Assembly (NCBI GenBank): GCA_041659365.1
Contig: JBAZYH010000003.1
Location: 7,678 to 71,677, forward strand
Origin: Minisyncoccota bacterium
GTDB taxonomy: Bacteria > Patescibacteriota > Minisyncoccia > Phycocordibacterales > GWA1-40-21
Direction: 5' to 3'
Length of the DNA: 64,000 bases
Position 1 is the stretch's first letter. Each line of letters starts with the position of its first letter. The translations under genes and the position numbers were made by a program. Shown here one piece after another: positions 14,171-59,749 of this stretch. Below the pieces are notes generated by a model. It saw nothing but the letters and a program-made list of their open reading frames with translations. It did not search any database and had not been told where the DNA came from.

Positions 14171-14437
14171 ATGTCAACAAAACCATTACCTTTTCATGAG
14201 TCAGTCGTACTTGCAATAAGAGATTGCCCTCATGGAAGCAGGTTTGAGATAGCTACATTATTAGAACTCATTAAAGGGACTATAATACCAAAAGGTCACG
14301 ACAAAATCATCAAGGCTATTGATGATCACTATGATTTTCTTGAGAAAAAATTGTGTGAGGATGAAATTCGCGAAGTTAAAGAACACCTTCTTGCTCAGAA
14401 AAAAATGAGTGAACAGAAACCTTCTGCCAAAAGTTGA
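14171..14437 (+). CDS. Hypothetical protein (88 aa)
   Basis: ORF with RBS AAGGTGAAAG. No recognisable motif. Confidence 0.35.
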   Translation: MSTKPLPFHESVVLAIRDCPHGSRFEIATLLELIKGTIIPKGHDKIIKAIDDHYDFLEKKLCEDEIREVKEHLLAQKKMSEQKPSAKS

Positions 14438-14617
14438 GCAAATAATGACCCACTTTCTCAATCCAGGAAACCCCTGTCGAGAGATGGTGGGTTTTCTTTT
14501 TATCAATATTCAACATTCACTATTTTATATTCTCCCCCAAGCTCTCCACAATTTAAACACAGATTATCCTTACTTTCATCATTGCAGTTTCTTTCTACAC
14601 CATGATAAAATAGGCCA

Positions 14618-15976
14618 ATGGTAACAGAAATGAGAAAAATAAATGTTCGTATTCCACCTCAAAATGTTGAGTCGGAAAGAGCCTTGCTTGGTTCTATAAT
14701 GCTCCGTCCTGAAGCTCTTGTGGAAATAATGGACATACTTCGTCCTGAAGCTTTTTATTCTGAAAAACACAAAACTATTTTTGTGGGAATGACAGATCTT
14801 TATGAAAAAAGAGATCCTATAGATTTTCTTACTCTCTCTTCAAAACTTAAAGAAAAAGGTGAGCTTGAACGTATTGGTGGCATGAGTTATCTTACAGAAA
14901 TTGTAAACACAGTTCCCTCTTCTTCAAATGCTGAACACTATGCTGCTATAGTTCAAAAGAAATTCACAATGCGTAGGCTTATAGAAGCCGCTGAAGGTAT
15001 AGCTACCCTAGGATATGATGAAGAAAATGAAATCGAAGAAGTTTTAGATAAAGCTGAAAAAAGAATATATGATGTTACTAGTAAAAACCTTTCTGGAAAA
15101 TATGTAGAGATGAAAGATGTTTTGGGTGAAGCAATGGATCGTTTAGATAGACTTCATAAAACCCAAGGTGAGCTCCGTGGAGTACCTAGCGGTTTCAAAG
15201 ATCTTGATGCCAAGCTTTCTGGTTTTCAAAATTCTGACCTTATTATTCTAGCTGCTCGACCTTCCATGGGAAAAACTTCCTTTGCTCTTGATATTGCGAG
15301 AAACGCAGCTATAAGACATAGTATTCCTACCGCTATTTTTTCTCTTGAAATGAGCACACAACAGCTTGTAGATAGAATGCTTTCTGCTGAGTCTCGTGTT
15401 GACTCTTGGAAGCTTCGTACGGGTAAGCTTACTCTCGATACAGAGTTCGAACAGATTCGTGCATGTCTTGACCCTCTTTCAAAGGCACCTCTCTATATAG
15501 ATGATCAAGCTGCAAACAATATTATTAAAATTCGTTCAATTGTACGAAGACTTAAGCATGAGAAAAAACTCGGGCTTGTGATCATAGATTATTTACAGCT
15601 CATGACACCTGTTCATAGTAAAGGTAATGATAACGTCGTTCAACAAATAACAGAGATTTCCCACTCACTTAAACAGCTTGCTAAAGAGTTTGATGTACCC
15701 GTCATTGCCCTTTCACAGCTTTCAAGAGCTGTTGAACAAAGAGGTGGAAGACCTAGACTTTCAGACTTGAGAGATTCTGGTTCTATTGAGCAGGATGCCG
15801 ATGTTGTTATATTTATTCACAGAGAAATGAATGAAGAAGGTGGTGGAAGAAAACAAACAGCAGAAATACTTATAGAAAAGCACAGAAACGGTCCTACAGG
15901 TAAAGTTGAGTTATACTTTGATCAAGATAAGACTTCTTTCCTTTCGATAGATAAAGCAGACTTCGGGGACTTTTGA
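14618..15976 (+). CDS. dnaB: Replicative DNA helicase DnaB
   Basis: N-terminal ERALLGSIM, a Walker A-like SMGKTSFAL, and RecA-like C-domain motifs. Length 452 aa. Confidence 0.9.
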   Translation: MVTEMRKINVRIPPQNVESERALLGSIMLRPEALVEIMDILRPEAFYSEKHKTIFVGMTDLYEKRDPIDFLTLSSKLKEKGELERIGGMSYLTEIVNTVPSSSNAEHYAAIVQKKFTMRRLIEAAEGIATLGYDEENEIEEVLDKAEKRIYDVTSKNLSGKYVEMKDVLGEAMDRLDRLHKTQGELRGVPSGFKDLDAKLSGFQNSDLIILAARPSMGKTSFALDIARNAAIRHSIPTAIFSLEMSTQQLVDRMLSAESRVDSWKLRTGKLTLDTEFEQIRACLDPLSKAPLYIDDQAANNIIKIRSIVRRLKHEKKLGLVIIDYLQLMTPVHSKGNDNVVQQITEISHSLKQLAKEFDVPVIALSQLSRAVEQRGGRPRLSDLRDSGSIEQDADVVIFIHREMNEEGGGRKQTAEILIEKHRNGPTGKVELYFDQDKTSFLSIDKADFGDF

Positions 15977-41649: not shown

Positions 41650-41757
41650 AATACCACTAATATTATCACATAATTTAATATATTAATTTAATAAAAAGAC
41701 ACGACCATATTATGTACCGTGTCTTAAAGTCTCGTCGAAGTGAACTCCTCCAGAAGT

Positions 41758-42399
41758 CTAACCGATAAAATGAGTGCCTGCTAGACCAATAAGGCTATTG
41801 GGGTTCTTACCATCCCAATGGACTGTTCCCTTAACAACTTCATTGGTAACAGACCATTGAAACAGGTGCTCGGCTTTATTTACCCGAACAGCAAGACTGT
41901 CTGCAGTATCACTTGAACGAATATCCACAGAACACCGAAAGAACACAGGACCTTGATCATATTTCTCTGTAACAAAGTGCATACACACTTCAGAGTATAC
42001 GATTTCATCACGCTTGAATGCAGCCAAGACTGCTTCATGAACATGATGACCATACATTCCTGGTCCACCAAATCGCGGAAGTGGTCCAGGGTGAATGTTG
42101 ATTGTCTTGTCCGGCGGAAGTCCAGTTACGAGCTTCAGCCAACCAGATAAGGCAACAAAGTCTGCCCCAGTTTCTTTGATATATCGCTGATAATTCTCTG
42201 CTGTCCAAGGACCAGCAAAATGGAAGAAAGGGACACAAAGTTTTTGTGCCCGATTGTAAACCCCACCATTGGCATAGTTCGAAACTACGCCAACAATGTG
42301 TGCTTCCAGTTTACCTTCACGTGACGCTTCGACAAGCTTTTGAAATCCAGAACCACCACCAGTACTATCACCTGACGCAAAAACAAGTAGATTTTTCAT
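41758..42399 (-). CDS. purN: Phosphoribosylglycinamide formyltransferase (PurN-like); foreign GC composition (~45%)
   Basis: VFASGDSTGG N-terminus and formyl-transferase core INIHPGPLPRFGGPGMYGHHVHEAVL (cf. NIHPSLLP...H). GC content is well above the window background. Confidence 0.7.
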   Translation of the reverse strand: MKNLLVFASGDSTGGGSGFQKLVEASREGKLEAHIVGVVSNYANGGVYNRAQKLCVPFFHFAGPWTAENYQRYIKETGADFVALSGWLKLVTGLPPDKTINIHPGPLPRFGGPGMYGHHVHEAVLAAFKRDEIVYSEVCMHFVTEKYDQGPVFFRCSVDIRSSDTADSLAVRVNKAEHLFQWSVTNEVVKGTVHWDGKNPNSLIGLAGTHFIG

Positions 42400-42568
42400 C
42401 TGCTAGTTTCCTTTCATTGTTTAAAAAACATTTAATCTCAGAGCTAACTCTACCAAAGGTTTTTATATAAATCAATTAAACAAAAAGAACCCCTAAGCCG
42501 CCATTACAGCAAGCTTAGGGGTTCATAGAGAACATCAAGGATTAAAAACCTTCGAACCTCACAATAAC

Positions 42569-43351
42569 TTAACGATTTTTCAGACACCATTCTCTGGCAT
42601 TCTGAAACATCTTAAGCCACGGCGAAGCTTCCAGATCCTTCTTCCATGATTCGGGCATATATGACCATTGCCACTTCAAGAAACACCTTTCAGGATGAGG
42701 CATCATTGCAAGATGCCGTCCATCAGGCGAACAGAGAGCCGTCAATCCGTGTCCCGAACCATTCGGGTTAAACGGATATTTTTCTGTCGGCTCATTATTC
42801 GAATCCACATAGACGAGAGGTGCAAGATTTTTCTCAAACACTTCATCTAGTATTTTCAAATTGGGAAACACCAACTTTCCTTCACCATGAGCAATATGGA
42901 TACCAAGTGTTGATCCTTCCATATCCGCAAGTAGTACTGACGGACTTGGTTGAATCTTCACTTGACTCCACCTGGACTCAAATCGCCCAGACTTGTTGTG
43001 AATAAACCGCGGTTGAATTGTTTCGTCCAATCCTTTCCACGGCACCCAACCAAGTAATGCAAACAACTGACACCCGTTACAGACTCCCAAGGAGAACGTA
43101 TCTTTCCGGTCGTAAAACCGGTCAAACATTTCTCTGAGAATCGGGTTGAACTTAATTACTCCAGCCCAACCTTTGGCACTCTCAAAGACATCCATGTACG
43201 AGAACCCGCCGGTAGCGACAATACCCTGGAATTCCTCCAGACTTATCCTTCCCGCCAGTAAGTCACTCATTGTGATGTCATAAGGATCCAAACCAGCGGC
43301 AAAAAATGCCGCCGACATTTCACGATCACCGTTCGAGCCTTCTTCACGCAA
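42569..43351 (-). pseudogene. purL: 3' fragment of a large-type FGAM synthase (purL) gene: C-terminal class-I glutamine amidotransferase domain only
   Basis: REEGSNGDREMSAAFFAAGL...GVCNGCQ...MMPHPER is collinear with the last ~255 aa of ~1300-aa PurL. The reading frame is abruptly replaced at 43352 by recombinase-derived sequence. GC content ~45%. Confidence 0.8.
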
Positions 43352-43356
43352 GACGG

Positions 43357-43701
43357 CAAATAAATATGTTTACTACGGCTGTACTCGAGCAAGAAATATT
43401 AATTGCAAAGAAGGTTATATTGAAGAAAAAGTTCTTATTAATCAGCTTTTAGAGATAATAGACAAAATTGATTTAGATTCTTCAGGAATAAAGAAAAAAC
43501 TCAGTGCAGAAATTGAACGCCACAAAAAATTCCATTCAAATATAATGGGTAAAAAGAATGAAGTGTATGAAGCAAAGGATGTTGATGTAAGAAACTATGC
43601 AAAGTACCTATTAACTGATGGAACAATGTTTGAAAAACGGGACTTGTTGGTGTGTTTAAGGAGTAAGCTTTTACTTAAGAATAAATTTATTGATTTAGAT
43701 T
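43357..43701 (+). pseudogene. 3' fragment of a large serine recombinase gene (near-identical copy of the last ~115 codons of CDS 48113-49417)
   Basis: Translates to KYVYYGCTRARNINCKEGYIEEKVLINQLLEIIDKIDLDSSGIKKKLSAEIERHKKFHSNIMGKKNEVYEAKDVDVRNYAKYLLTDGTMFEKRDLL, near-identical to residues ~320-434 of the intact recombinase. Confidence 0.8.
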
Positions 43702-45491
43702 AATGATCTATCATTTAAATCAACACCATCTAATGCTGATATAGATCCTGTTGGGGGTTCAGTAATTTCTACTTCTGGACCACGTCCAAAACCCATAGTA
43801 TAGAAGAATTTTCCATACCTGTATTTCATATCATCAGGTAACAAAACATCTTTCATAAACTTTTCATTAACCATCAGAGTATCGGTATCTAAAAGAGGTT
43901 TTAGATCAATATAAAGAAGCCGTCTCATTCGTTCAGTTTGTTCATATTTCCATCCTCTCCCTTTTCTATCTGCACTTGTAGCGAGCGCAAACCCAAAAAA
44001 AGTTAGGTAGCTTCTTAATACACCTGGATAATGTTTTTTAATAACATTGATGGCTATCTGTTCCCAAATTCTTTTTTCAAATGGTGCTATATAACCTTGC
44101 TTATACTGACTTTCATAAATCATACCGTGTAATAATTCTAGTACGGTATGGTATGTATCATTTGTATGTTTAATGTAGTCTAAATGTGTAAAAGCTTGAT
44201 ATAAAGTAGCGGCAATCCCCTCATTAATAGTTGAGTTAGAGTAAAATCCCGCTTCTGTAGCAGTTTTCTCACGTTCAATTACTACTTGATTAAATTCATC
44301 TTCATAAGCAAGAAACGGGTAATCATGACCAAGAAAATTAGCAATTATGTGTAGCGACCACCATTTGTCTTTCAATACATATTTTGTATCAACACCACGT
44401 TCCTCTTCAGTATTAATTTCCAAACATAAATTATTAAATATTGAACTCAAATGAGAGAGTCCGTCATTGATATGACGAGCAGGAGCTAAACCCGTTTTTA
44501 AATATGCTTCTATTGCCTGTGAGAGAGCTTCTATAAAAACTTCAATCTGTATATTATTTAAACCAGATTGCATTTTGTAATCAATGGATGGCCAACTAAA
44601 TATATTAAAATTTGAAAGAATAAATGTAGATCCAAAAAGACTCCCGTAAAGATTAGTGGAAAGTGCGAGCCCACTCTTATCAAGGTGTGTATAGAGATAA
44701 GAATTTTGGTCAGAAAATAAATTTCTTACAATTCTGGGGAACCCTCGCACTCGCTGTTCAGTCAATTTATGTTCTTCTAGTATAAATATTATGTAACGAA
44801 GCGCATCTAATCTTTTTGTGGTTATTAAATCTACTATAGAAGCTTCGCCAAGAATCACATCAAGAATATTAATTGCAGATTGAGTTCCTTTGTTGTTGTA
44901 ATCTTGTTTTGCAAATTGACAGATATTATCCAAATTTTCTAAAAGTGCATTTAAAATTACATTGAGTCGTTCAGGGTTTGATCTAGATAATTCTCTAACC
45001 ATAACTTCATAAAATTTTCTTGAATTCTCTACCTTAAAAAGTTTTTTATTCGTGGCTTGTACAAAAAGAAACAATATTGAAAATGCTATTAAAATACTTG
45101 CTAAAATTTGCCAAAAAATCGATAATTGAAATACATACACAGGATTCTCAATAAGAATTATAGAAGAAATTATTGAAAATATAACTCCCAATGAAAGAGT
45201 TATAAAAACAACAGGTTGAATATAACTTTTAACTCGTAGTGCAATAAACCACTCTTCTTTTCTAAATTGATAAATTGCAAGCAAAATTGCTATGGAAGCT
45301 AATGCTTCGCCGACAGAGAAAAATATTGGTGGGTTTTGATAAGGATAGTTTGTTAAATTAAGAGTTAGAAAATGCATAATTGATTCAGCTACAGTTCCTA
45401 AACTATTTTTCGGAAGATAAATTAGTATAAAGAAAAAAACACAAGCAATAAGTTTGTAAAAATCGGCTTTTGTAATTTTTTCGTCTTCCAT
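43695..45491 (-). CDS. Hypothetical 598-aa protein: N-terminal 4-TM region plus large cytoplasmic alpha-helical domain
   Basis: No recognisable catalytic motif. Located inside the island next to the recombinase fragment. Confidence 0.45.
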   Translation of the reverse strand: MEDEKITKADFYKLIACVFFFILIYLPKNSLGTVAESIMHFLTLNLTNYPYQNPPIFFSVGEALASIAILLAIYQFRKEEWFIALRVKSYIQPVVFITLSLGVIFSIISSIILIENPVYVFQLSIFWQILASILIAFSILFLFVQATNKKLFKVENSRKFYEVMVRELSRSNPERLNVILNALLENLDNICQFAKQDYNNKGTQSAINILDVILGEASIVDLITTKRLDALRYIIFILEEHKLTEQRVRGFPRIVRNLFSDQNSYLYTHLDKSGLALSTNLYGSLFGSTFILSNFNIFSWPSIDYKMQSGLNNIQIEVFIEALSQAIEAYLKTGLAPARHINDGLSHLSSIFNNLCLEINTEEERGVDTKYVLKDKWWSLHIIANFLGHDYPFLAYEDEFNQVVIEREKTATEAGFYSNSTINEGIAATLYQAFTHLDYIKHTNDTYHTVLELLHGMIYESQYKQGYIAPFEKRIWEQIAINVIKKHYPGVLRSYLTFFGFALATSADRKGRGWKYEQTERMRRLLYIDLKPLLDTDTLMVNEKFMKDVLLPDDMKYRYGKFFYTMGFGRGPEVEITEPPTGSISALDGVDLNDRSLI

Positions 45492-45521
45492 GAAATGGAT
45501 TATACCAGAATAACCCCTTTA

Positions 45522-45551
45522 GGTCTTTCGATACTTTTATTCTTTGCTGCG
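45522..45551. repeat. att-like direct repeat copy 1 (GGTCTTTCGATACTTTTATTCTTTGCTGCG)
   Basis: Shares GGTC(C/T)TTCGATACT...CTTTGCTG with the copies at 54781 and 55588. Confidence 0.55.
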
Positions 45552-45655
45552 ATGTCTGGTCTAGTACGTACTGCACTAGATGTGATAAAGCTATTTTAGC
45601 ATATTCTAGACTCAGTCCCTAACCTGTTTAGGTCTATAATTATTCACGATAGCTT

Positions 45656-45865
45656 TAACAGTAAATACTGTTAATTTACTGTTAAAACCTTATTTTTACG
45701 CTATCACTTTTTTTATACTATTTTATGACCTTCTTGCAGTATTAACTGCATATTTACTGCAAGAACTACAAAATGACTTTTTATAAAATTGATGATTTTA
45801 GTCTATTTTTTATCTATTCTTAAAAAGCTGCTTTGCCAGTATTTACTGGCGATTTACTGGCAAAA
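45656..45865. repeat. Three related operator/iteron-like sites, each an inverted repeat followed by a direct repeat of TTTACTG(GC)
   Basis: CAGTAAATACTGTTAATTTACTG (45656-45690), GCAGTATTAACTGCATATTTACTGC (45738-45768), and GCCAGTATTTACTGGCGATTTACTGGC (45832-45865). Confidence 0.5.
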
Positions 45866-46027
45866 TAATAAAAAACACTTTTTATTATTAAACATGTTTT
45901 TTGATTACTTTTTAGGCAGTGTTCTAACACGTTTACAACATATATGTCAAATTAGTTGTTATGATTAATACAAAAATACCGTTCCCTATTTCAGAAACAG
46001 TATCTCTGTATTAATATATATTATAGA

Positions 46028-46693
46028 TTATTTATATACTTCCAATGATCCAGAAAATGCAGTAACTTCAGCAACTTTTTCATTTGAATATGCATCTAGA
46101 ACTTGGAAATGATGATATCCGGTTATTTTCTCTTTAAGAGTTGCTATTTTAGCCAAAAAGTCTTTCTTAAAAGCTACTGTTTGTGTATACCAAATTTTTC
46201 CTACATATATAACATTCGCTTTATTAGAAAACTCATATGAAGTTACAAGTCCCGCTTGTTTAGCTAAAGAAAATACAGAATCTAATTCTTTTTGTGCTTT
46301 TTGTTTTTCTTCTTCAGAAATAACATTTTTTGTAGTTGTACTTTTTACTACCTCTTTATTAGTATTTTGTATATTACTGTTATTAATTTGATTATTTACA
46401 CTACTAGTAAAACCAGGATTTCCATTAAATCCAGAAAAAGAAAGTAGTATTAACACAATAGCAACTAGAAAAACTTCTTGTTTGCCAGATAATATAAAAT
46501 TATATTTTTCTTTTATTTTCTTAGATACTGGAGGTAATAATATAAGACCTACAATTATTAGTATGACCTTATAAAATAAATTCATTCCTATACCACCTAA
46601 CCCTGACAACACAAAAAATATTCCAAATATCCAATTCCATTTTGAAGTTTTTGGTTGAACCTTAACTTCAGAAGGCTGATTTTCATTATTCAT
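46028..46693 (-). CDS. Hypothetical membrane protein (221 aa)
   Basis: Two N-terminal TM helices, an Asn/Ser-rich linker, and a C-terminal soluble domain. Confidence 0.4.
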   Translation of the reverse strand: MNNENQPSEVKVQPKTSKWNWIFGIFFVLSGLGGIGMNLFYKVILIIVGLILLPPVSKKIKEKYNFILSGKQEVFLVAIVLILLSFSGFNGNPGFTSSVNNQINNSNIQNTNKEVVKSTTTKNVISEEEKQKAQKELDSVFSLAKQAGLVTSYEFSNKANVIYVGKIWYTQTVAFKKDFLAKIATLKEKITGYHHFQVLDAYSNEKVAEVTAFSGSLEVYK

Positions 46694-46958
46694 AAAACTC
46701 TAGCGGGTTTTAATCGATAGAGGTAGAGCCTTCGTGAACAAAGAGCTCCCCGCCATCGCGATAGAACCTTTCGGCCCTACCCATACCAGTTTCCCGATAT
46801 GACCCGCTAGAGTGACTCTGACGAGGAGTCCTTTGTTCTCTAGCGGGTTTTGCAACCATATCCTTATTTCTAAGGGGTTAGGTCGACTTTTATTAAATTG
46901 TTATTGATATGATAGCACAATAAAAGCTATCATAAAAGTATACTAGCTTAAATTAAAA

Positions 46959-48065
46959 TTATTGTGTAGTAAAATTATCTACTTCTTCAAAAAAAGATTC
47001 AATTATTTTATCTTTCCTGTCAGAATAAGCAAACTCAAATATACTACTTAGTATTGCTTCTTCAATAATTCCGCCTATTATATATGGTTTAATATCACTA
47101 TTGGGTTTTATATAATACAGACATCTATTTATAGTAATTGGTAAGTAAATTAAAAAATTTTGATTTAATTCCCACAAAAAAATACCCAAAGATCTAAATT
47201 CATTAATATCATAAATATTAGCTGGGCTATCGGATAAATAAAAGAAAGCAGGTTCTTTTGATTCTAACATTCTTAATTCATATTTATACAACAACCCTGA
47301 TAAATAGTCAGCCGTTAATATTGATATTTTAATAATTAAATTTTCCATTCCAACTAAAGATTGATTGTTTTTATTTGTAAATTTAAAATATTCTACTGGA
47401 TTTATATTATAATAATTATCAAAAAGTGCTTTTTTAAAAAAATCTTTTTTTGTCATTTCCTCTATATTAATCTTTTTTTCTAAACTTAAATATTCTAAAA
47501 TTAATCTAATTTGAAGAAAAAATTTTGGAGTTCTTGTATATTGAAAAGCAATAAAAGAAGTCAAAATGCTTCTCTCAAAATTCGTCAAATTTATTTCATC
47601 ATTTTTAATTATTTTATTAATTATTCTTGACGTATATTTTTCTAAGGTTAAAGCAAAAATTTGCTTTTCTATAAAGTCACTTTGTTGCTTAGTTTCTTTA
47701 TCTCTAAAAGAATATAAATTAGGTGTACAAGCAGCCTCCTTATAGATTGAAATTGGATTATTTTTTTTAAAATATCCGTACTGATAAATTTGTCCTGTTC
47801 TAGGAATACTAAATCTTTTTAATAAAAATTTAGGAATATAGTGGTGAACAGCTTTTTTGTGTTCCAAAACATATACATCCTTTATTAACTTATTATAAAT
47901 ATTAAAAATAAACTTAGCTAAAAAAACTTTATCGATTTCCTTATCTAGACAATAAGACATAATTTTATCTGCTAAGATTAATCTTTGGTGATTAATTATC
48001 TTATTAATCTTATTAAAAATAATCATATACAATATATTATACTTTAATATAAAAATAGTTATCAA
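46959..48065 (-). CDS. DUF4238-like protein
   Basis: HHYIPKFLLKRFS resembles the DUF4238 N-terminal HYVPQFYLKNF signature. The true start is probably the internal Met at ~47960. Confidence 0.45.
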   Translation of the reverse strand: MITIFILKYNILYMIIFNKINKIINHQRLILADKIMSYCLDKEIDKVFLAKFIFNIYNKLIKDVYVLEHKKAVHHYIPKFLLKRFSIPRTGQIYQYGYFKKNNPISIYKEAACTPNLYSFRDKETKQQSDFIEKQIFALTLEKYTSRIINKIIKNDEINLTNFERSILTSFIAFQYTRTPKFFLQIRLILEYLSLEKKINIEEMTKKDFFKKALFDNYYNINPVEYFKFTNKNNQSLVGMENLIIKISILTADYLSGLLYKYELRMLESKEPAFFYLSDSPANIYDINEFRSLGIFLWELNQNFLIYLPITINRCLYYIKPNSDIKPYIIGGIIEEAILSSIFEFAYSDRKDKIIESFFEEVDNFTTQ

Positions 48066-48112: not shown

Positions 48113-49417
48113 ATGCAAACGCAAAACCCGCTAAATGTGACTCTAGACGAAACAAAGGCCGTAAATTACTGCTTATATGCCCGTAAATCAAGCGAGGCCG
48201 AGGAGAGACAAGCTTTATCGATAGATTCTCAGCTTAAGGAAATGTTAACCATTGCACAGCGAGATGGACTCAATATAATCGAAATTTATAGAGAATCTCA
48301 CTCAGCAAAAGATTGCGGGCAAAGACCAGTTTTTAATCAATTAATTTTAGACTTAAAATCAGGAAAGTTTAATGGAATACTTGTATGGCACCCAGACCGA
48401 TTATCAAGAAACGCTGGTGACCTCGGAGCTCTTGTAGATTTACTTGATCAAAAGAAACTGGTTGAGATAAGAACTTTTAGTCAAAGATTTACAAACAATC
48501 CAAATGAAAAGTTTCTATTAATGATTCTTGGTTCCCAAGCAAAACTTGAAAATGATAATAAAAGTGTAAATGTAAAACGTGGATTAAAAGCAAAGTGTGA
48601 AATGGGACTTTGGCCAGCACAAGCACCAACCGGATATCTAAATTCAAAAAATAGAGATCAAACAGGTATAGTTTTTGTTGATCCAGATAGAGCACTTGTT
48701 ATAAAAGAAATATTCCGAAAAGTAGCTTACGAAGGTTTAAGTGGTAGAAAAATATTTAAATGGCTAAAGGATATAAAATTTGTAACAAAAAATAATAAAT
48801 CACTGACACTAAGTAATATCTATACAATATTAAACAATCACTTTTATTATGGAAGCTTTGAATATCCAAAAGAAAGCGGTAGATGGTTTCAAGGTAAACA
48901 TATTTCTTTAATATCAAAAGATCTATTTGATGATGTACAAAGACAGTTACATACACAAATAAAAACTAATGTAAAAAATAAGGAATTTACTTTTACTAAA
49001 ATGCTCACATGCGGAGGTTGTGGTTCTGGAGTAACAGCTCAAGAAAAGTATAAAACACTAAAAGATGGGACGATAAATAAATATGTTTACTATGGTTGTA
49101 CTCGAGCTAGAAATATTAGTTGTAAAGAAGGTTATATTGAAGAAAAAATCCTTATAAATCAACTTTTAGAAATAATAGATAATCTAGATTTAGATTCTTC
49201 AGGAATAAAGAAAAAACTTTCGTTTGAGATTGAAAGACATAAAAAGTTTCATTCGAATATAATGGGGAAGAAAAATGAGCTATATGAAGCAAAGGATGTA
49301 GATATAAGAAACTATGCTAAGTATTTATTAACCGAGGGAACAATGTTTGAAAAAAGAGATTTATTAGGATGTTTGAAATCTAAAATTATCTTAAAAAATA
49401 AAATAGTATTTATTTAA
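48113..49417 (+). CDS. Large serine recombinase (resolvase N-domain + recombinase domain + zinc-ribbon)
   Basis: Catalytic YARKSSEAEERQALSIDSQ (Ser nucleophile) and DRLSR. C-terminal Cys cluster CGGCGS...YYGC. Length 434 aa. Confidence 0.85.
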   Translation: MQTQNPLNVTLDETKAVNYCLYARKSSEAEERQALSIDSQLKEMLTIAQRDGLNIIEIYRESHSAKDCGQRPVFNQLILDLKSGKFNGILVWHPDRLSRNAGDLGALVDLLDQKKLVEIRTFSQRFTNNPNEKFLLMILGSQAKLENDNKSVNVKRGLKAKCEMGLWPAQAPTGYLNSKNRDQTGIVFVDPDRALVIKEIFRKVAYEGLSGRKIFKWLKDIKFVTKNNKSLTLSNIYTILNNHFYYGSFEYPKESGRWFQGKHISLISKDLFDDVQRQLHTQIKTNVKNKEFTFTKMLTCGGCGSGVTAQEKYKTLKDGTINKYVYYGCTRARNISCKEGYIEEKILINQLLEIIDNLDLDSSGIKKKLSFEIERHKKFHSNIMGKKNELYEAKDVDIRNYAKYLLTEGTMFEKRDLLGCLKSKIILKNKIVFI

Positions 49418-51039
49418 AGTGTTCTTATATCAACTTTTAATCGCCTGTTAACCAATTTTTGATATATATTTTTTATACTAACAATATCCTTTTTTGATAA
49501 TTTTAAATTCTTTTTAAGAATAACGTTATCTGTAAAATTTAAAATATCTTCTTTCGACTCTTTATTTCTCAGCATTGTATCGAGTTTATTAAAATCTGAT
49601 TGATTAATTTTTATATATGGTACAGGTATATTCTTAAATTCATTTGGTATTAGTTCCAATACTCCACCGCCGTAATATCTACCCTCAAGTTCCGTAAAAA
49701 TTAAACTTAATGTATTTAAGAAACAAAAAGATAAATTTTTAATATCATAACCATCTTTCATCATAATCCGATAGAAAGCATCTGTAACATTAACTTTTGC
49801 ATCATTTACAACTATCCTTGGGAAAAAATTACTTCTTTTAATAAAAAACCCCTCGGATGGCCATATACTTGAAACATGAAACCAATTATTTCTTATTTTG
49901 CATTTATATCCATTATTAACACCATTATTTTCACCAAGTTTTATATATTTTTTAATTTTTTTTGGAAAATAATTTTCCGATTTATCTTCTAAAGATAGTA
50001 GAAATACTGGTTTATCTCTTTCTTTTAAAAACGAAAAATCAGTACGGGTTATAATTAGAGAAGTGGGAATAAAAGAACTTTTTTGTAAAATTGGTTTGCA
50101 ATATTTTTTAATATTAAACTTATCAGCTGTAGTTTTATTTATAATAAAAAAATCATTGGCGGCAGTAACAATACCAACTTGGACTTTTGAATAATCTTTT
50201 ATAGCCAAAAGATCTTTCTTGAACTTATCTAAAAAAGACAGTTCTTTTTGTGACAAAATATAATTGGTCCATTTATCTAGAGTATCTCTGTCAATATTAG
50301 TATTACCAGGAATAAGATCCGGTTTTTTTAAATCATCAAGTCTGTTTGCTTGAAAAAAAGAAACCTCTTTGTTTTTTGATGATTTAGTCCCAATAATTAT
50401 TATTACATCCTGTTCAATCCCATCAAAAACAAGTTCATTAAATGCAAATATTTCAATTTTATTTAATTTTTTTCTTAGATAGTCCCTTATTTCTTTTGCA
50501 TAAGAAACTTGTAGTAATTCAGCAGGTAAAACAAATGAAACAATACCATTATCATTTAGTGATTCTACAGATCCAATTAAAAAAGCTGTCCAGACATTCT
50601 TTATTTTTTTATTTGAAAGATTAGCTTTAGCGTGAATTTTTTCACATAAATCAAGCTGTTTTTTTGTAAGATGATTTTTTTTAATATAAGGCGGATTACC
50701 TATAACAAGATCATATTTTTGTGAATTATTTTTTTCAAATTCTAAATAATCAATTAAATGAGGTATAATTTTTGTATCTTTATCTTTAAAATTACTAGGA
50801 ATTATTATTGATTTTTTTAGCTCGGATTCCTCTCGTTCAACAATTTCTAATGTTATTTTTTTATTGTTTTTGTTATTTTTTATAAGAGAACTAACAAAAA
50901 TACCATCTCCAACACTTGGTTCTAAAATTTTAATCTCATTAGGAAGAGAGTAATGTTTGGTATTAAAAATTCGCTTAACTATAAAGTTAGAAATTATTTC
51001 TGGCGTATAGTATGATCCATTTTTCTTTTGATTTATCAT
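49414..51039 (-). CDS. N6-adenine DNA methyltransferase (gamma class, Eco57I/TaqI-like) with C-terminal target-recognition domain
   Basis: GSYYTPE (motif X), EPSVGDGIF (motif I), and GNPPYIKK (motif IV). Length 541 aa. Overlaps the HNH gene by 4 nt. Confidence 0.8.
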   Translation of the reverse strand: MINQKKNGSYYTPEIISNFIVKRIFNTKHYSLPNEIKILEPSVGDGIFVSSLIKNNKNNKKITLEIVEREESELKKSIIIPSNFKDKDTKIIPHLIDYLEFEKNNSQKYDLVIGNPPYIKKNHLTKKQLDLCEKIHAKANLSNKKIKNVWTAFLIGSVESLNDNGIVSFVLPAELLQVSYAKEIRDYLRKKLNKIEIFAFNELVFDGIEQDVIIIIGTKSSKNKEVSFFQANRLDDLKKPDLIPGNTNIDRDTLDKWTNYILSQKELSFLDKFKKDLLAIKDYSKVQVGIVTAANDFFIINKTTADKFNIKKYCKPILQKSSFIPTSLIITRTDFSFLKERDKPVFLLSLEDKSENYFPKKIKKYIKLGENNGVNNGYKCKIRNNWFHVSSIWPSEGFFIKRSNFFPRIVVNDAKVNVTDAFYRIMMKDGYDIKNLSFCFLNTLSLIFTELEGRYYGGGVLELIPNEFKNIPVPYIKINQSDFNKLDTMLRNKESKEDILNFTDNVILKKNLKLSKKDIVSIKNIYQKLVNRRLKVDIRTL

Positions 51040-51683
51040 TTATGTTTTCGACTAACATCAGTAATCTCATACGACGGTATTTTTTTAAGATCAAGGATAA
51101 GTTTATTTATATCCCCACTCAATTTAGCGAGTGTTTTTAAATATTTAATTGATTTTTTATTTCCCAAAACACCAAGATCTTTAATTAAGTTCATATAATT
51201 TTGATTTAATTTATTTAAATCTTGATCTAAAAAATATTGTCTGCGTTCTAAAATCAATTGTGGCCTATTAAAATATAATCTTTCTACCATGTATCTTGAT
51301 GCAATATATTTGCCAGAAACAATTCCAGTATTTGTATTAAGATTAAAGATGTTTGAGTAATCAATTTTTGAAGGATCTGGATAAGAACTGTTATTTAAAT
51401 GTCTGTTTGGTTCAGCTGGCCAATCATTTAATTTAAAACGGTTACAAATTGGGCAAGAATAAAAGAGGTTTTCTAAGATATGTTCCAATGTTGGGAATTT
51501 TGATTTAGGTTTATAATGTTCAACATGAAAAGCCTGGATACCGCCTAATGCATTTTCATGAATCGCACAATATACACAACGAAAACCCCCTTCTTGTCTC
51601 AGGAATTCTTTAACTCTAGAATCATGACATCCGTAAGACTCAACCGTGAGATTCGTTGTTTTCTGAATTTTTGACCATTTCAT
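51036..51683 (-). CDS. HNH endonuclease
   Basis: CVYCAIHEN...FHVEHYKPKS...CPICNRFK gives the Cys4 plus His-Asn-His (HNH) core. Length 215 aa. Confidence 0.75.
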   Translation of the reverse strand: MKWSKIQKTTNLTVESYGCHDSRVKEFLRQEGGFRCVYCAIHENALGGIQAFHVEHYKPKSKFPTLEHILENLFYSCPICNRFKLNDWPAEPNRHLNNSSYPDPSKIDYSNIFNLNTNTGIVSGKYIASRYMVERLYFNRPQLILERRQYFLDQDLNKLNQNYMNLIKDLGVLGNKKSIKYLKTLAKLSGDINKLILDLKKIPSYEITDVSRKHK

Positions 51684-51685
51684 TT

Positions 51686-52366
51686 TTATTTCTTATTTTT
51701 TTGATTTAAATATCTTTTTGCTTCTTTTTGTGCCATTTTAAAACTATCTATAACTTCCTGATATGCATCGAGCCATTCTTTTCTACTATTTAAAGCAATC
51801 GTGGTAACAGGTATCTCAAGATTTTTTTGTATTGCCTCCGCCCTCTTTTTTTGTTTCGTTGTAGCTTTTCCAATTGCGATTCTTTTTGAAATCATAGAAA
51901 GTTCCGTTAATTCTTTTTCGTTAGATTCTAAAAAGTTTTTATAAGTTCGAAGAAATCTTTCCACATAGAGGCTAGCTTTACTTGAAAAATCTTCGCGTTT
52001 CATTACTTCATCAAATAATGCAAAGTGTTGTTGCATAGATGGATCATCTGGATAAGAAGTGACTCCGTAAATTGGCATCCCTTTAAATTGTGTTCGAAGT
52101 ATGTTAACTAGATCACTACCTTTATAATTTACAGATTTTCCTGAAGTACCAGGAACCTCACCTAATCTTTCATCAAGAATTAAAACTCCTATTTGCTCAT
52201 TATTTATCCACTTTGAATAATCTCCTAGGTTTAAAAATGGTGTGGTTTCAATAACAGACCAATTATTTTTTATATCTAAATTAATGATTGCATCTTCAAT
52301 AACATCTGCAACCATTTTTCTTGCGTCATCACGATCGTCTACTACAGCGATTTTTGTTGTTTTCAT
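51686..52366 (-). CDS. Orphan receiver (REC)-like domain protein with helical C-terminal extension
   Basis: KIAVVDDRDD acidic pair, a candidate phospho-acceptor Asp in VLILDERLG, and a T/S in GVTSYP. About 100-aa C-terminal region with no DNA-binding motif recognised. Confidence 0.45.
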   Translation of the reverse strand: MKTTKIAVVDDRDDARKMVADVIEDAIINLDIKNNWSVIETTPFLNLGDYSKWINNEQIGVLILDERLGEVPGTSGKSVNYKGSDLVNILRTQFKGMPIYGVTSYPDDPSMQQHFALFDEVMKREDFSSKASLYVERFLRTYKNFLESNEKELTELSMISKRIAIGKATTKQKKRAEAIQKNLEIPVTTIALNSRKEWLDAYQEVIDSFKMAQKEAKRYLNQKNKK

Positions 52367-52370
52367 ATTT

Positions 52371-54569
52371 TTAATTTGATGGTAACCAGATACGAAATTT
52401 AGCTCCTTTTAATTTTTGATCTTTTGTTACTTCTCGATCTCCACCTAATTCGTCGACGGTAGATTTAACAATTGTAAGTCCCAATCCTGTACCTTCTTCT
52501 TTACCATTTTTATCTTTCTTTGTAGTAAATAATGGTTCCCAAATTATATCTGTTATTGTTTTATCAACACCGACTCCACTGTCTGCAACTACAATTTCAA
52601 AACCTTTTTTTAATCCAATATTTTTTTCATAAAGTTCAATACGAACTTTTCTGTTATTCGAAATCTGACTACAGGCAGTATATGCATTTGTTAAAAGATT
52701 CAAAACTATAGATTCAAGATCCATAACAAAAACTTTTGCGTCAACCTCTTTCAAGTCCTTTATTATCTCAATTTTAATTACCTTAAAGGCTTCTTCAACT
52801 TCATTGATTACAACCTCTACAGCGCTTTTTACATTTACTTTTTGACGGGTTCTTTTATCTTTTCTAACACGGGCCATGGCAAATGCACCCCAAGAAGAAA
52901 CTTGCTTTGCATATCCAAGAGAAGTACTTAATTGATCTAAAGCTCTTTTTACATTTGGTCCCGTTTTAAGTGAAAGAGAAGATTGTGCAGCTGAAACCCC
53001 CGAACGGAAAAGTGATACTGCTGTTTGAGTCTCGTGTCCAAAAACGGCAGCCGCTATACCAACAGTAGCAAGGCCACTCAAAACTCGATTATTATCAAGT
53101 AACTCCTCAAATCTTTTTTTTGTTTCCTCTGTTCTTTTAATAACATCGGCAATTTGTCCGATAGATTCTTTATTTTCTTTTCCAATTCCAGACCCAAGTT
53201 TATTACTTAGACTTTCAAGATCTTTTTGGAAAGTTTCAAGATTTTGTCTATAATTATCTACCTCTTCAATTAATCCGGCTTTATTATTTTTTTCATTTTG
53301 TTTTTTTTCAATTAATGCTTTTTCGTGTCTATGTTTTTCAATCAAAGTGACGCAAGCGAGAGTTAATGCTCTTAAATCATAAAAAGCATCACTTTCAATA
53401 AGACCCTCTCTTGAAGCACCGTCTATTAGTTGTGGATTAGTATCTCTACCAATAGCAACTGCTCCAACTATTTGATGGGATGAGACTTTATAAGAAGGTC
53501 GAAGTAAACCAGCAGGATCTCTTTCTTTTCTTTGGGCAAGCCCTAACCAATCACCGGCAGGTTCATTATTATAACCATAAGGTTTTACACTGATCTGATC
53601 CCTGTATATTTTAATACCAAGATTTTTATCTAAAAAGTTTCTTAGTCCAGAAAAACTAAGTCCTTTTTCTAAAAGCAATGGGTTATTTTTTGTTCGTCCA
53701 AAAAATAAAATATCAATTGATACTGGTCCACATTTAAGAGTGTTGTTGAATCCTATATCTGTATTTACTCTTTGTGAAAGTTTATCCCAGGATATTTCGT
53801 TTTTATAATAAAGATTTTTAGAATTAATTTTTTCAATTATTTTATATTTTATTTTTTGTGTTTTTTCATCAAAAATTGCTTGAAGAGAGATTTCCGACGC
53901 CTCATAATATGAAGATTTTACTACTCCATTTAATTCTTCAACAAGATGATTATGAAATCGTATTTCAAAATCTTTTACAGCTGAAAAGGGTGAGATGAGA
54001 GCAGTAAGTTCACTGTAAACCTGTTCGATATCTACTTTTAACCATGTTTGTCTTAAATTTGAAATCAATATTTCTGTACCAGTATTTCGATCAGATTTGG
54101 GTATTTTTATGTTCTGAGTATTTAATATACTAACCTGTATATCTGAAAGATCCTTGCCGTCAACATTAAACTGTTCCCAGTTAACAGAAAGTTTTAATGG
54201 TGTGATTTCGCTAGTTTTAGTTATAAGTGAAAGTTTTTCACCTAATCTATCCGCAGAAAGACGCCCGATGCCTTTTTCACCAGTTTTACGTCTTGATTTT
54301 TTAGTAAGTTTTATTAATTTTTTATCAGAAAAACCAATACGTAACCAATTTTCTTCAAGTTGAGGACCTGTCATACCAATACCATTATCAGCGACACGGA
54401 TATTATCCTTATTTATTTCTACTTCCACGACAGTAGCATCTGCGTCATAGCTGTTTTTTACCAATTCTAAAAGAGCTGTTGTTGGATTTTTAATACTATC
54501 ACGTCCTAGATTAATAACTGTCCGTGCATCAATAGTAAACGATTTATTTTTTTTATTTTCTTTAAACAT
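52371..54569 (-). CDS. 732-aa protein with two GHKL ATPase domains: N-terminal MORC/HATPase_c_3-like and C-terminal histidine-kinase-type HATPase_c preceded by a possible degenerate H-box
   Basis: N-terminal ELVKNSYDADA (N-box), DNGIGM (G1), GEKGIGRLS (G2). Central FGHETQ (H-box candidate). C-terminal LLTNAYTA (N), VADSGVGV (G1), GTGLGLTIVK (G2). Confidence 0.65.
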   Translation of the reverse strand: MFKENKKNKSFTIDARTVINLGRDSIKNPTTALLELVKNSYDADATVVEVEINKDNIRVADNGIGMTGPQLEENWLRIGFSDKKLIKLTKKSRRKTGEKGIGRLSADRLGEKLSLITKTSEITPLKLSVNWEQFNVDGKDLSDIQVSILNTQNIKIPKSDRNTGTEILISNLRQTWLKVDIEQVYSELTALISPFSAVKDFEIRFHNHLVEELNGVVKSSYYEASEISLQAIFDEKTQKIKYKIIEKINSKNLYYKNEISWDKLSQRVNTDIGFNNTLKCGPVSIDILFFGRTKNNPLLLEKGLSFSGLRNFLDKNLGIKIYRDQISVKPYGYNNEPAGDWLGLAQRKERDPAGLLRPSYKVSSHQIVGAVAIGRDTNPQLIDGASREGLIESDAFYDLRALTLACVTLIEKHRHEKALIEKKQNEKNNKAGLIEEVDNYRQNLETFQKDLESLSNKLGSGIGKENKESIGQIADVIKRTEETKKRFEELLDNNRVLSGLATVGIAAAVFGHETQTAVSLFRSGVSAAQSSLSLKTGPNVKRALDQLSTSLGYAKQVSSWGAFAMARVRKDKRTRQKVNVKSAVEVVINEVEEAFKVIKIEIIKDLKEVDAKVFVMDLESIVLNLLTNAYTACSQISNNRKVRIELYEKNIGLKKGFEIVVADSGVGVDKTITDIIWEPLFTTKKDKNGKEEGTGLGLTIVKSTVDELGGDREVTKDQKLKGAKFRIWLPSN

Positions 54570-54780
54570 ATTAAAACTATTTACTCTAAAATATTAAAAT
54601 ACTCTGCATACTGCAGTTTCACCTGAAGAATCAACTAACCTGATATATCATCTCATATTTTATGACTTTTCTCAATTAATTTACAACAACACATAATATT
54701 ATGGATGTGTTTAATTTTAATATAATAGAAATCAAACTTAGATAGAATCTTATACCAAATTTTAAAATTCTACCGCTCAT

Positions 54781-54819
54781 GGTCCTTCGATACTAATTTC
54801 CTTTGCTGCTGCTCTAGGA
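54781..54819. repeat. att-like direct repeat copy 2
   Basis: GGTCCTTCGATACTAATTTCCTTTGCTGCTGCTCTAGGA. Confidence 0.55.
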
Positions 54820-54904
54820 CTGTCACTAGGTCTAGTACTGGCTATAAATATACACCTAATTAAAAAATTCGCTAGTTTTTTTAGTTCTAGTCCTAAGTTT
54901 AAAA

Positions 54905-55414
54905 TTAATTTAAAAATGTTTTAATTTTTTCAACAGCTTCGTTAAAATCATCTCCAACTTTAATAACCACTAATGGTAATTGAGCTTCTTTTAATATTTC
55001 TATTTTTTCGTTATCAGTTTCAATCTGCTTGAGTTTGTTATGATACCCTCCATTTAATTCTACCGCGACAACTGGTTTGAAATATAAATCACAGATTATA
55101 AAATCTATATGTTTGGGCATAATTTTTCTTGCCATATTTTTATATCCATAGTATTCATTGGTTTTTATTGGCTCAACAATATCAGCCAAGCGCATATTCG
55201 GGAAAATATGATAGTTGTGTGGTAACTTATTTTGTAATTCAAAAAATAGAGCAGATTCTGTTTTGTTCATTAAACTAAATTTTTTATTATATCTAGCTAA
55301 TTTTGGTTCTGGTGTTTTTACTAAAATATCAGAATTGTTTATACTATGCCATTTCCTGTTTAGTATATAAATAAGAAAAAGTAATATTACTACCCACATT
55401 AAAAATATATTCAT
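54905..55414 (-). CDS. DUF2726-like (restriction-endonuclease-fold) membrane-anchored protein
   Basis: ESALFFELQNKLPHNYHIFPNMRLADIV...HIDFIICD...PVVAVELNGGYH matches the DUF2726 pattern (E..Y..L......V.PQV.LADV...HVDFVLCD..P.LAIELDD.SH). Confidence 0.5.
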   Translation of the reverse strand: MNIFLMWVVILLFLIYILNRKWHSINNSDILVKTPEPKLARYNKKFSLMNKTESALFFELQNKLPHNYHIFPNMRLADIVEPIKTNEYYGYKNMARKIMPKHIDFIICDLYFKPVVAVELNGGYHNKLKQIETDNEKIEILKEAQLPLVVIKVGDDFNEAVEKIKTFLN

Positions 55415-55587
55415 ATTTTAATTGTAACATTTTTGTAATAATTAACTATTTTGAGAATATATAAACCAAAAAAAAGGAACTTGGTCTAGAACCAAAATGA
55501 CGGCTTAAAACATATAAATTAAAAAGTAACGGCTTTAGGACCAGAAACGGTGATTTTAAAATACATTGAAAAATATAGACCATTTCT

Positions 55588-55661
55588 GGTCCTTCGATAC
55601 TTTTTTACTTTGCTGTGGAACTAGGAATCGAACCGAATTCATTATAACACAAAGCTTTTCA
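55588..55661 (-). repeat. att-like direct repeat copy 3 fused to a tRNA 3'-end-like fragment (T-arm GGTTCGATTCC + acceptor-like TAGTTCCACAG)
   Basis: Minus-strand reading is ...GGTTCGATTCCTAGTTCCACAGCAAAGTAAAAAAGTATCGAAGGACC. No complete cloverleaf could be folded. Confidence 0.45.
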
Positions 55662-55727
55662 GAGATCAGGCTATCTAGCTCTAGTTGCATAGGTACTTGA
55701 GCATAACTCAAGTTGCCTTATCTAGGT

Positions 55728-56495
55728 TTATTTCTCGTGTTGTTCAGACATACCCCACAGACCATCAAACCATGCTTGCATAGTGTCATGATGTTCCTTC
55801 GAAGTTATAAGCACACAATAACAGTCTTTCATTGAAGATATATAAAGTGTTTTATCATCATATAAAAAAACAGTACTTTTAAAATTACCTCTCATTACTT
55901 CTGGTACAATTCTAACATCTGAAACTCCTTTGTAATATTCATTAAATGTTTTTTTATCGATACTTCTTTCCCAAAGATTTTTTGTTTTAATTCCACGCTT
56001 TTTCCTTTCTTCCACAAAGAGTTTTACAAATTCACCACCTACTTGCCAAAAAAAGTTTTCTTTAGGTGCAACAGAATTTATTTGTTTACTTTTACAATAG
56101 AGCATATCCATAATCAGACTTTTTACTGCTCCAACTCCTTCATAAAAAGCAACTACCGGTCTTTGACTTTCTGAAGAGTTCTCAACTTTAAGGGAATCAA
56201 CAAGATCAGATATATTATCTTTAAGCTGTTTGGTTTCAAGATTTTTTTCTTCAGCGAGTGTATTTAATTTTTCAATAGATTCCAGAGAAAAACGTTTATC
56301 ACCTTCAAGACCTGTTTTACTTATCAAACCACGTTTTTCCAAACAACCTAAAGCATAATAAACCGTAGGTCTTTTTTGACGAGTTATTTTTACTAAGTCT
56401 CTAGCAGTCCTTGCTCCAGATACCATGGCCAAATATATAGTGACTTCTGAATCACTCAATCCTAAATCTAAAAGATGTTTTCTTGGTTCTTGCAT
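55728..56495 (-). CDS. TrmB-family transcriptional regulator
   Basis: N-terminal LGLSDSEVTIYLAMVSGARTARDLVKITRQKRPTVYYALGCLEKRGLI winged-helix typical of TrmB, plus a C-terminal effector domain. Confidence 0.7.
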   Translation of the reverse strand: MQEPRKHLLDLGLSDSEVTIYLAMVSGARTARDLVKITRQKRPTVYYALGCLEKRGLISKTGLEGDKRFSLESIEKLNTLAEEKNLETKQLKDNISDLVDSLKVENSSESQRPVVAFYEGVGAVKSLIMDMLYCKSKQINSVAPKENFFWQVGGEFVKLFVEERKKRGIKTKNLWERSIDKKTFNEYYKGVSDVRIVPEVMRGNFKSTVFLYDDKTLYISSMKDCYCVLITSKEHHDTMQAWFDGLWGMSEQHEK

Positions 56496-58334: not shown

Positions 58335-58341
58335 AAGCTCA

Positions 58342-59567: not shown

Positions 59568-59678
59568 CTTTCCTTGAACCTTTCTTTTCTTCCTAGAAAC
59601 TGCTAGGACAGTTATACCTTACAAGGTACTATAAGAATCTATATCTAATTATACACATAATTATATATATGTCAAGTG

Positions 59679-59749
59679 CTGGGGGACTTGGATTCGAACC
59701 AAAATAAACGGATTCAAAATCCGTTGTCCTACCATTAGACGATCCCCCA
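59679..59749 (-). tRNA. tRNA-Gln (anticodon UUG)
   Basis: Minus-strand sequence is TGGGGGATCGTCTAATGGTAGGACAACGGATTTTGAATCCGTTTATTTTGGTTCGAATCCAAGTCCCCCAG. It has a 7-bp acceptor stem, D-arm TAATGGTAG, anticodon stem ACGGA/TCCGT with loop TTTTGAA, and T-loop TTCGAAT. Confidence 0.8.

Follow-up and report, generated by a model that had tools for sequence, protein, structure and literature searches.

The locus considered here raises the question of how the 3′ part of a large-type purL gene came to lie directly against the 3′ part of a large serine recombinase gene in a CPR genome. It is part of a 64-kb stretch of DNA, which is referred to below as the window and to which all coordinates refer. 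The junction is probably an ordinary deletion scar between the remains of two pseudogenes, on the border of a tRNA-Gln island.

Structure and Authenticity of the Junction

The junction and the genes involved are the following.

43352..43363, no strand: junction; last base of purL homology 43357, first base of certain recombinase homology 43358
42569..43357, minus strand: 3′ fragment of large-type purL, consisting of the glutaminase domain (last 262 codons and stop), without the 5′ part, an ATG or a ribosome-binding site
43358..43703, plus strand: remaining 3′ part of another large serine recombinase gene (codons ~321-434 and stop), with the C-terminal region and one half of the zinc ribbon
48113..49417, plus strand: intact large serine recombinase gene, 434 aa, with Pfam Resolvase, Recombinase and Zn_ribbon_recom; PHROG 95

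The two remnants, purL on the minus strand and the recombinase on the plus strand, stand head-to-head and point apart, and each of them lacks its 5′ part. In blastn alignments, the homology to full-length purL begins exactly at 43357, which is the last base before the join. The recombinase homology starts at 43358, or possibly at 43352, as GACG at 43352-43355 fits the recombinase parent too and two mismatches come after it. Clean microhomology at the join amounts to 0-2 nt. A clean overlap as short as this, adjoined by an imperfect match (GACG, 4 of 6), is typical of illegitimate recombination, which had been proposed in a preliminary description of this DNA. The recombinase gene is joined at codon ~321, within the coding sequence and not at an element end or att site. 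The same description had let the purL frame end at 43351/43352, six bases before the recombinase. The truncation stands, but the six bases are still purL: the frame extends two codons beyond the open reading frame, through the A-V of the conserved KVAVLREEG, to 43357.

The junction of purL and serine recombinase is genuine. The Logan contig L001 (run SRR18595301, 2429 nt) is identical to positions 41071-43499 of the window (100% identity, no mismatch). It crosses both the junction and the left edge of a GC-rich block, continuing into a native META-domain gene, and since it spans the junction, the latter is carried by reads. A second Logan contig (L128) corresponds to positions 43472-46822. The two contigs meet within 43470-43501, which is the sole exact repeat of at least 31 nt shared with the intact recombinase copy, and L001 ends there because a k=31 graph must break at an exact repeat of this kind (32 nt). 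The link across the 32-nt repeat comes from the JGI assembly alone. The Logan and JGI assemblies were produced by different methods, possibly from the same sample. An assembly or library chimera might be suspected in a metagenome contig with an abrupt composition change at the join. However, the same 2,429 nt, with both block edges, came out of a second assembly for which another method was used, and the contig break is explained by the 32-nt exact repeat. A chimera is therefore extremely improbable, the little room left being for one formed in the library, should the two assemblies share a sample.

The purL Fragment

The open reading frame at 42569-43351 (minus strand) matches Pfam GATase_5 (PF13507) over model positions 8-260 of 260 (E 3e-102). 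In the alignment with Salmonella PurL (chain 1t3t_A, 1303 residues), the fragment covers residues 1051-1300, in agreement with the earlier placing of its beginning at the equivalent of E. coli residue ~1040. It thus resembles the large-type PurL of Salmonella (PDB 1T3T) over the whole C-terminal glutaminase domain. The catalytic motifs are kept, with the Cys in GVCNGCQ and the His and Glu in HPER, so that the Cys-His-Glu triad is present. The fragment differs from the large-type enzyme by the loss of ~1,040 residues, which make up the N-terminal, linker and synthetase domains, and it belongs to a Patescibacteria clade, not to proteobacteria. When the 815-aa N-terminal part of a relative's PurL (from L003) was used as tblastn query, no N-terminal, linker or AIRS-like synthetase domain was found in the 64-kb window.

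The preliminary description regarded the open reading frame as a truncated 3′ fragment without its own start and ribosome-binding site, and not as a stand-alone gene. The evidence bears this out, as the homology to full-length purL reaches the join. The only start codon is a TTG at 43351, which is not preceded by a purine-rich stretch; an ATG is absent. Upstream, the frame reads two stop codons and then TYLFAVLREEG, the stops standing four codons upstream of the purL frame. The own start, ribosome-binding site and independent 5′ boundary of a stand-alone PurQ-type protein are all lacking.

The 262 codons contain neither stop nor frameshift, and their dN/dS of 0.08 equals the value between intact genes, which means that purL was truncated recently or that the fragment remains under constraint. 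A functional reading could be built on these features. The 260-aa open reading frame would be a stand-alone PurQ-like glutaminase working with the neighbouring PurN-like enzyme. Its codons and catalytic motifs are intact, and the cut in purL lies only a few codons from the boundary of the glutaminase domain, where some database proteins start (MAVIREEG or MAIIREEG). The window also holds a purF of native composition (27477-28880). Against this stand the TTG as the only start, the missing ribosome-binding site and the stops just upstream. Furthermore, nucleotide homology to full-length purL continues up to the join, most of the first beta-strand of the domain is missing, the synthetase part is absent from the window and a terminator lies between the open reading frame and purN. 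Judged from these sequence features, a working glutaminase would be very unlikely.

Origin of the purL and purN Block

The purL fragment belongs to a short block of distinct composition.

41696..43357, no strand: foreign 1,662-bp block, GC 0.44, in which a conserved terminator lies between the 3′ purL fragment and purN; collinear with a purine gene cluster of Patescibacteria
41758..42399, minus strand: intact PurN-like formyltransferase gene, 213 aa, with its own ribosome-binding site
42486..42526, minus strand: GC-rich hairpin and T-run directly downstream of the purL stop, conserved with L007

The GC content of 41696-43357 is 0.443, as compared to 0.30 in the left flank and 0.32 in the right flank, with sharp steps at ~41700 and 43357. 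GC3 is 0.46 in the purL fragment and 0.32 in purN, against 0.12-0.27 in the remaining genes of the window outside 57147-59567. The earlier view that the purN and purL block is foreign by composition is upheld by these values. A second GC-rich block is present in the window at 57147-59567; it was also searched as a possible seat of the purL 5′ part, and nothing was found.

The PurN-like protein matches Pfam Formyl_trans_N (PF00551) above the cut-off (74.4 bits, E 1e-20), and its score against NCBIfam TIGR00639 PurN is 82.7 bits, under the cut-off of 150.1. Its translation contains the NIHP and YDQGP motifs. It is 75% identical in amino acids to the purN of an unclassified MAG, here L007, where the gene itself lies within a pur cluster. 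The hairpin at 42486-42526, which has its counterpart within 10790-10876 of L007, is probably the purL terminator, and the left edge of the block falls directly after the purN terminator.

The preliminary description considered large PurL alien to CPR lineages and called for the donor to be identified. The search with the purL fragment, in a scan with one genome per species, led to a different result: the closest relatives are full-length large purL genes in Patescibacteria MAGs, with 76-87% amino acid identity, and not proteobacterial genes. The closest is that of L007 (87% amino acid and 81% nucleotide identity), and those of Candidatus Staskawiczbacteria, Falkowbacteria, Uhrbacteria and one Patescibacteria group bacterium are 76-77% identical in amino acids. 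In L007 the cluster has the order purL, purM-like gene, purC/purE fusion and purN. Blastn aligns 43357..42482 of the window with 10001..10876 of L007 (81%), and 42428..41800 with 14028..14656 (70%). The homology continues 87 nt beyond the purL stop, through the terminator, and restarts 29 nt upstream of purN. The intervening 3.15 kb of L007, with the purM-like and purC/E genes, is missing from the window.

The host is Paceibacteria-like, with a GC content of ~30%, and its dnaX shares 80-82% identity with proteins under the name Candidatus Paceibacterota. On sequence comparison, the donor of the pur genes would be another Parcubacteria-type bacterium of higher GC. Among CPR loci, the GC3 of the purL clade lies between 0.38 and 0.62, while that of hosts or neighbouring genes ranges from 0.20 to 0.62. 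Decayed purL genes occur in relatives, one with two frameshifts (L004) and one with an in-frame stop (L003). Large-type purL thus occurs in Parcubacteria-type CPR, and its pattern fits a gene which appears to move among Parcubacteria lineages of very different GC and then to decay. Such movement and decay bear on the gain and loss of nucleotide synthesis in reduced genomes.

The Serine Recombinase Copies

The intact recombinase has the architecture of phage serine integrases, like the enzymes of phiC31, Bxb1, TP901-1 and A118, in which Resolvase, Recombinase and zinc-ribbon parts follow each other. The catalytic domain (Pfam PF00239) covers residues 21-165 with 85.6 bits, followed by PF07508 at residues 191-280 and the zinc ribbon PF13408 at residues 294-353; the Ser-containing motif YARKSSEAE is present in the translation. 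The protein matches PHROG 95 integrase with 227 bits, and IMG/VR contigs carry relatives which are 47-60% identical. To annotated phage integrases, however, the intact copy is only ~25% identical. The fragment has no catalytic domain. It reads TANKYVYYGCTR...KFIDLD from 43358, and its first in-frame start is an ATG at 43545.

The preliminary description saw in the plus-strand segment a repeat of the last ~115 codons of the intact recombinase with ~9 amino acid differences. It is indeed the 3′ fragment of a second, related gene, but the divergence is larger. The fragment and the intact 3′ end share 86.7% protein identity over 113 residues, with ~15 differences and a divergent tail. The nucleotide alignment that had been suggested shows 89% identity over the first 150 nt and 78% over the next 177 nt, in register and with a spacing of 5717 nt. 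The comparison gives a dN/dS of 0.08 and a dS of ~1.4, and for this reason the two copies are taken to derive from different elements or functional genes, and not from a recent duplication. No residual recombinase homology was detected within 1.5 kb upstream of the fragment, and no 5′ remnant elsewhere in the window.

A first protein search had returned short proteins only, and a family of stand-alone small proteins was considered. This was abandoned after the metagenome scan, in which most loci are full-length (about three quarters of 80 related loci); that the first list held short proteins only is due to the way in which such a search gathers its candidates.

The tRNA-Gln Island

The surroundings of the two recombinase copies contain the following features.

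43695..48065, minus strand: region between the recombinase copies, with orf598, orf221, LOOT RNA and DUF4238
43695-45491, minus strand: orf598, between the recombinase copies
46028-46693, minus strand: orf221, between the recombinase copies
46760-46884, minus strand: LOOT RNA, between the recombinase copies
46959-48065, minus strand: DUF4238 protein gene, between the recombinase copies
49414..56495, minus strand: island cargo between the intact recombinase and the tRNA
59678..59749, minus strand: tRNA-Gln(TTG), on the strand opposite to the recombinase genes, as in close relatives

The tRNA-Gln(TTG) gene at 59678-59749 is the probable anchor of an island array. Most of the scanned loci with sufficient downstream flank have an opposite-strand tRNA gene downstream of the recombinase. 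Among close relatives (at least 66% identity, sufficient flank) it is tRNA-Gln in 9/9, at a distance of 136 nt to 2.5 kb, and more distant relatives are found at other tRNAs (Arg, Lys, Ser, Ile, Trp, Glu). This family of CPR serine integrases therefore sits beside tRNA genes, and tRNA identity tracks integrase similarity; its elements could be mined for new integrase/att pairs. In the window, the tRNA-Gln is 10.3 kb from the intact recombinase and 16 kb to the right of the fragment, in the same orientation. An integrase near a tRNA gene, in an orientation conserved in relatives, is the arrangement of a tRNA-anchored integrative island. The recombinase fragment thus stands at the edge farthest from the tRNA in an island array that comprises at least two element generations. 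The cargo genes encode a type II methyltransferase, a PtuB-like HNH protein, a receiver-like protein, a GHKL/BbrUII-like ATPase, a DUF2726 protein and a TrmB-like regulator.

The locus resembles known tRNA-anchored islands and prophage arrays in its integrases directed towards an opposite-strand tRNA and in its variable cargo including defence genes. More than one element generation, foreign DNA at the edge and a truncated older integrase are further points of likeness. It differs in that the host is a CPR bacterium and the enzyme a large serine recombinase, whereas islands usually carry a tyrosine integrase. No tRNA-Gln fragment repeats marking element ends were found in the window, as expected for serine integrases; the absence of such direct repeats is attributed to the integrase being a serine and not the usual tyrosine enzyme. 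Likewise, no conserved motif was found downstream of the recombinase stop codons which could serve as a candidate att half-site.

The orphan LOOT RNA is associated with this recombinase family and is thereby tied to CPR serine-integrase elements. In L067, too, the recombinase is directly preceded by an orf221-like gene and a LOOT RNA. When orf598 was looked up by its exact protein sequence, no arrangement other than the present one came up, and the META-domain neighbour gave no match. Homologues of o229 near purL in L008 and L011 were considered as a link between the island ends and discarded, as they lie merely among tRNA genes.

The repeated recombinase 3′ ends allow another history of this region. 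A resident scar of purL and recombinase would have been the landing pad for a 5.7-kb circle carrying recombinase, orf598, orf221, LOOT RNA and DUF4238, which integrated through the 345-nt homology. The direct repeats are in register from 43352/49069, the segment between them holds the module of LOOT and orf221 that is found upstream of this recombinase elsewhere, and a k=31 graph cannot distinguish the integrated form from a circle plus an empty site. However, copies which are 78-89% identical are a poor substrate for homologous recombination, and no circular or empty-site contig was seen. Moreover, the circle accounts for the repeat and not for the initial joining of purL and recombinase. This history is considered unlikely.

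Formation of the Junction

The tRNA data bear directly on the mechanism suggested in the preliminary description, namely that the element formerly sat in the purL of another host. An integrase element in the purL of a higher-GC host would have excised imprecisely, taking along the purL 3′ end and purN, and its integrase would have been truncated later. This would place a block of foreign composition directly against a mobile-element gene at an island edge, as is seen here. It would also agree with a left edge just after the purN terminator, as for a discrete imported piece. The recombinase family, however, adjoins tRNA genes (tRNA-Gln in all nine close relatives) and never lies in purL, and it was present in 0/15 purL loci. 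IMG/VR contains no close relative of purL or purN on viral contigs, and the element's own genes are host-like (GC3 0.12-0.25). Imprecise excision alone cannot yield the junction, because the join is at codon ~321 and not at an element end; an extra illegitimate event within the integrase coding sequence would be required regardless. A former seat in purL is thus not borne out, and capture by excision is considered unlikely.

The junction is more probably the scar of an illegitimate recombination, most simply of a single deletion, at the far edge of the island by tRNA-Gln. A single illegitimate deletion across divergent genes suffices, because the remnants face apart and both lack their 5′ parts. 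According to this model, the cluster of purL, purM-like gene, purC-E and purN would have arrived from another, higher-GC bacterium of the Parcubacteria type. It would have adjoined, or belonged to, an integrated element with an oppositely pointing large serine integrase gene. A deletion from purL codon ~1043 to integrase codon ~321 would then have removed both 5′ portions and everything between them, leaving two dead 3′ remnants back to back. A second loss would have removed the genes between purL and purN, with purN staying intact. A second, related element with an intact integrase would lie 4.4 kb to the right, towards the tRNA. We infer this order of events, a deletion in the host lineage and the inactivity of both remnants; neither the recombinase remnant nor that of purL looks functional. 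The resulting annotation comprises two remnants of pseudogenes and one foreign PurN-like gene.

As to how the pur block came to this place, arrival on mobile DNA is slightly favoured over host DNA flanking the island, since its left edge is sharp and directly follows the purN terminator, and since the block lies at an integration hot spot. Against the single deletion it must be said that the pre-deletion state is absent from the relatives and strain variants searched. The unbroken purL frame and the cut so close to a domain boundary count against it as well. Neither this state nor an empty site was found in host relatives reached through the neighbours of dnaX, in which the region downstream of dnaX is variable and has no synteny with the left flank of the window.

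The scar can be compared with two known processes. In deletional decay after transfer, as described for reduced genomes, an acquired biosynthetic cluster is lost piecemeal, and frameshifts or an in-frame stop in relatives belong to the same picture; the difference is that here one end of the deletion lies inside a mobile-element gene, leaving back-to-back 3′ remnants. In captures similar to specialised transduction, foreign chromosomal DNA adjoins mobile-element DNA as it does here, but the present join is not at an attachment site and the recombinase family does not target purL.

Clustering of Recombinase Breakpoints

This recombinase has left 3′ remnants in other CPR genomes too. They are broken off cleanly at residues 260, 288, 290, 310, 311, 317, 322 and 370, and the DNA upstream of the remnants is unrelated in the different genomes. 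When the window is included (residue 320), 7/9 breaks fall within 35 codons in the first half of the zinc-ribbon coding region, the outliers being 260 and 370. If breaks were uniform over residues 1-323, the probability that all eight in-range breaks lie at 260 or beyond would be ~2e-6, for a sample which is small and was obtained in a scan that favoured fragments covering the whole 116-residue query. A single breakpoint nucleotide common to all remnants was considered and rejected, as the breaks are spread over ~35 codons.

That remnants elsewhere break in the same 35-codon stretch hints that the process may be less random than a single deletion. The break might then be non-random, owing to a recombination-prone stretch or to the retention of the coiled-coil tail, although this is regarded as quite unlikely. 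If true, the purL junction would be one product of a recurrent process and not a one-off deletion. Elements or enzymes which attack resident integrase genes would be an example of the recombination-prone site, and a selected tail could act, for example, as a decoy blocking incoming related integrases. Among database open reading frames, some have an ATG at precisely codon 321, and some have lost residues ~46-285 in frame.

Recombinase family, tRNA genes and LOOT RNA

The identity of the tRNA gene 3′ of the recombinase gene tracks recombinase similarity, both in the window (59678-59749) and in the CPR and metagenome loci used for comparison (L018, L022, L023, L027-L030, L032, L036 and others). 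All recombinase relatives with at least 66% identity are followed by tRNA-Gln (TTG or CTG), and those at 50-62% identity by a tRNA for Arg, Lys, Ser, Ile, Trp or Glu. The downstream tRNA gene lies on the strand opposite the recombinase in every case. This tracking of tRNA identity, together with the constant orientation, suggests that CPR bacteria hold a family of serine integrases targeting tRNA neighbourhoods.

The 3′ remnants of the recombinase gene are recurrent in CPR genomes, and their clean breakpoints cluster at residues ~288-323. They are found at L018 10010, L022 9968, L037 127, L055 4185, L056 2024, L079 2560, L082 6834 and L094 9908, and the set includes the database proteins P0125, P0126, P0130, P0149, P0153, P0154, P0164 and P0169. 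Some ORFs begin with an ATG at codon 321. In two proteins, residues 1-45 of the recombinase are joined in frame to its zinc ribbon and tail.

The recombinase is also accompanied by an RNA:

46760-46884, minus strand, LOOT RNA (Rfam RF03000, 76.9 bits)

LOOT RNA is present in 11 of the 18 scanned loci of this recombinase family (L023, L038, L044, L048, L049, L052, L054, L058, L067, L077 and L079) whereas a control set of 10 CPR loci with a comparable total length contains none. Usually, it is either divergent from the recombinase gene and placed 0.2-0.3 kb upstream or lies ~46 nt downstream. The window's serine recombinase family and LOOT RNA travel together. LOOT is not discussed in the main text of the 2017 paper that reported its discovery.

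Island cargo

Directly after the intact recombinase, the genes of 49414-54569 (minus strand) are likely to form a defence cluster:

Eco57I-like type II methyltransferase, minus strand (506 bits to a PADLOC model)
PtuB-like HNH protein, minus strand
receiver-like protein, minus strand
732-aa protein, minus strand; its N-terminal GHKL domain is BbrUII/HgiDII-like and its C-terminal ATPase domain is of the histidine-kinase type

A 40-nt motif, whose core on the minus strand reads CAGCAAAG..A....AGTATCGAAGGACC, occurs three times in the window (45521-45560, 54780-54819 and 55587-55626). The copies precede the island genes for orf598 (43695-45491, minus strand), the GHKL ATPase and DUF2726 by 30-210 nt.

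Purine genes and GC-rich DNA

The window carries an intact purine gene of native composition:

27477-28880, minus strand, purF (amidophosphoribosyltransferase), GC3 0.16

Therefore, some of the de novo purine pathway exists, or once existed, in the host lineage independently of the purL/purN import. Damage to the purL clade of the window is also seen in other low-GC CPR contigs, where members of the same clade are represented by:

L004 2-3198, purL with two frameshifts
L003 843-4607, purL with a single in-frame stop (GGSALL*ALNQ)
L002 7602-11173, purL whose sole interruption is a run of N

The GC3 of purL in low-GC hosts exceeds that of its neighbours by 0.12-0.21.

A second GC-rich block is located immediately left of tRNA-Gln:

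57147-59567, GC 0.40-0.42, GC3 0.39-0.58

It contains an ORF of 395 aa, which matches CoaD over its first 180 residues and adjoins CoaE, as well as two ORFs that overlap, match no family and share weak mutual similarity.

Further genes of the window

Two other places in the window hold:

59754-60443, minus strand, 229-aa protein with no family match
38822-40626, minus strand, a pair of paralogous genes in tandem, coding for 298 and 302 aa, immediately to the left of the META-domain gene

Other CPR contigs encode homologues of the 229-aa protein with 31-33% identity (L008 11451-12074, L011 3607-4251 and L055 2871-3413), always in the midst of tRNA genes; two adjoin purL and one adjoins a recombinase remnant. 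The tandem paralogues share 47-50% identity and carry N-terminal membrane anchors.
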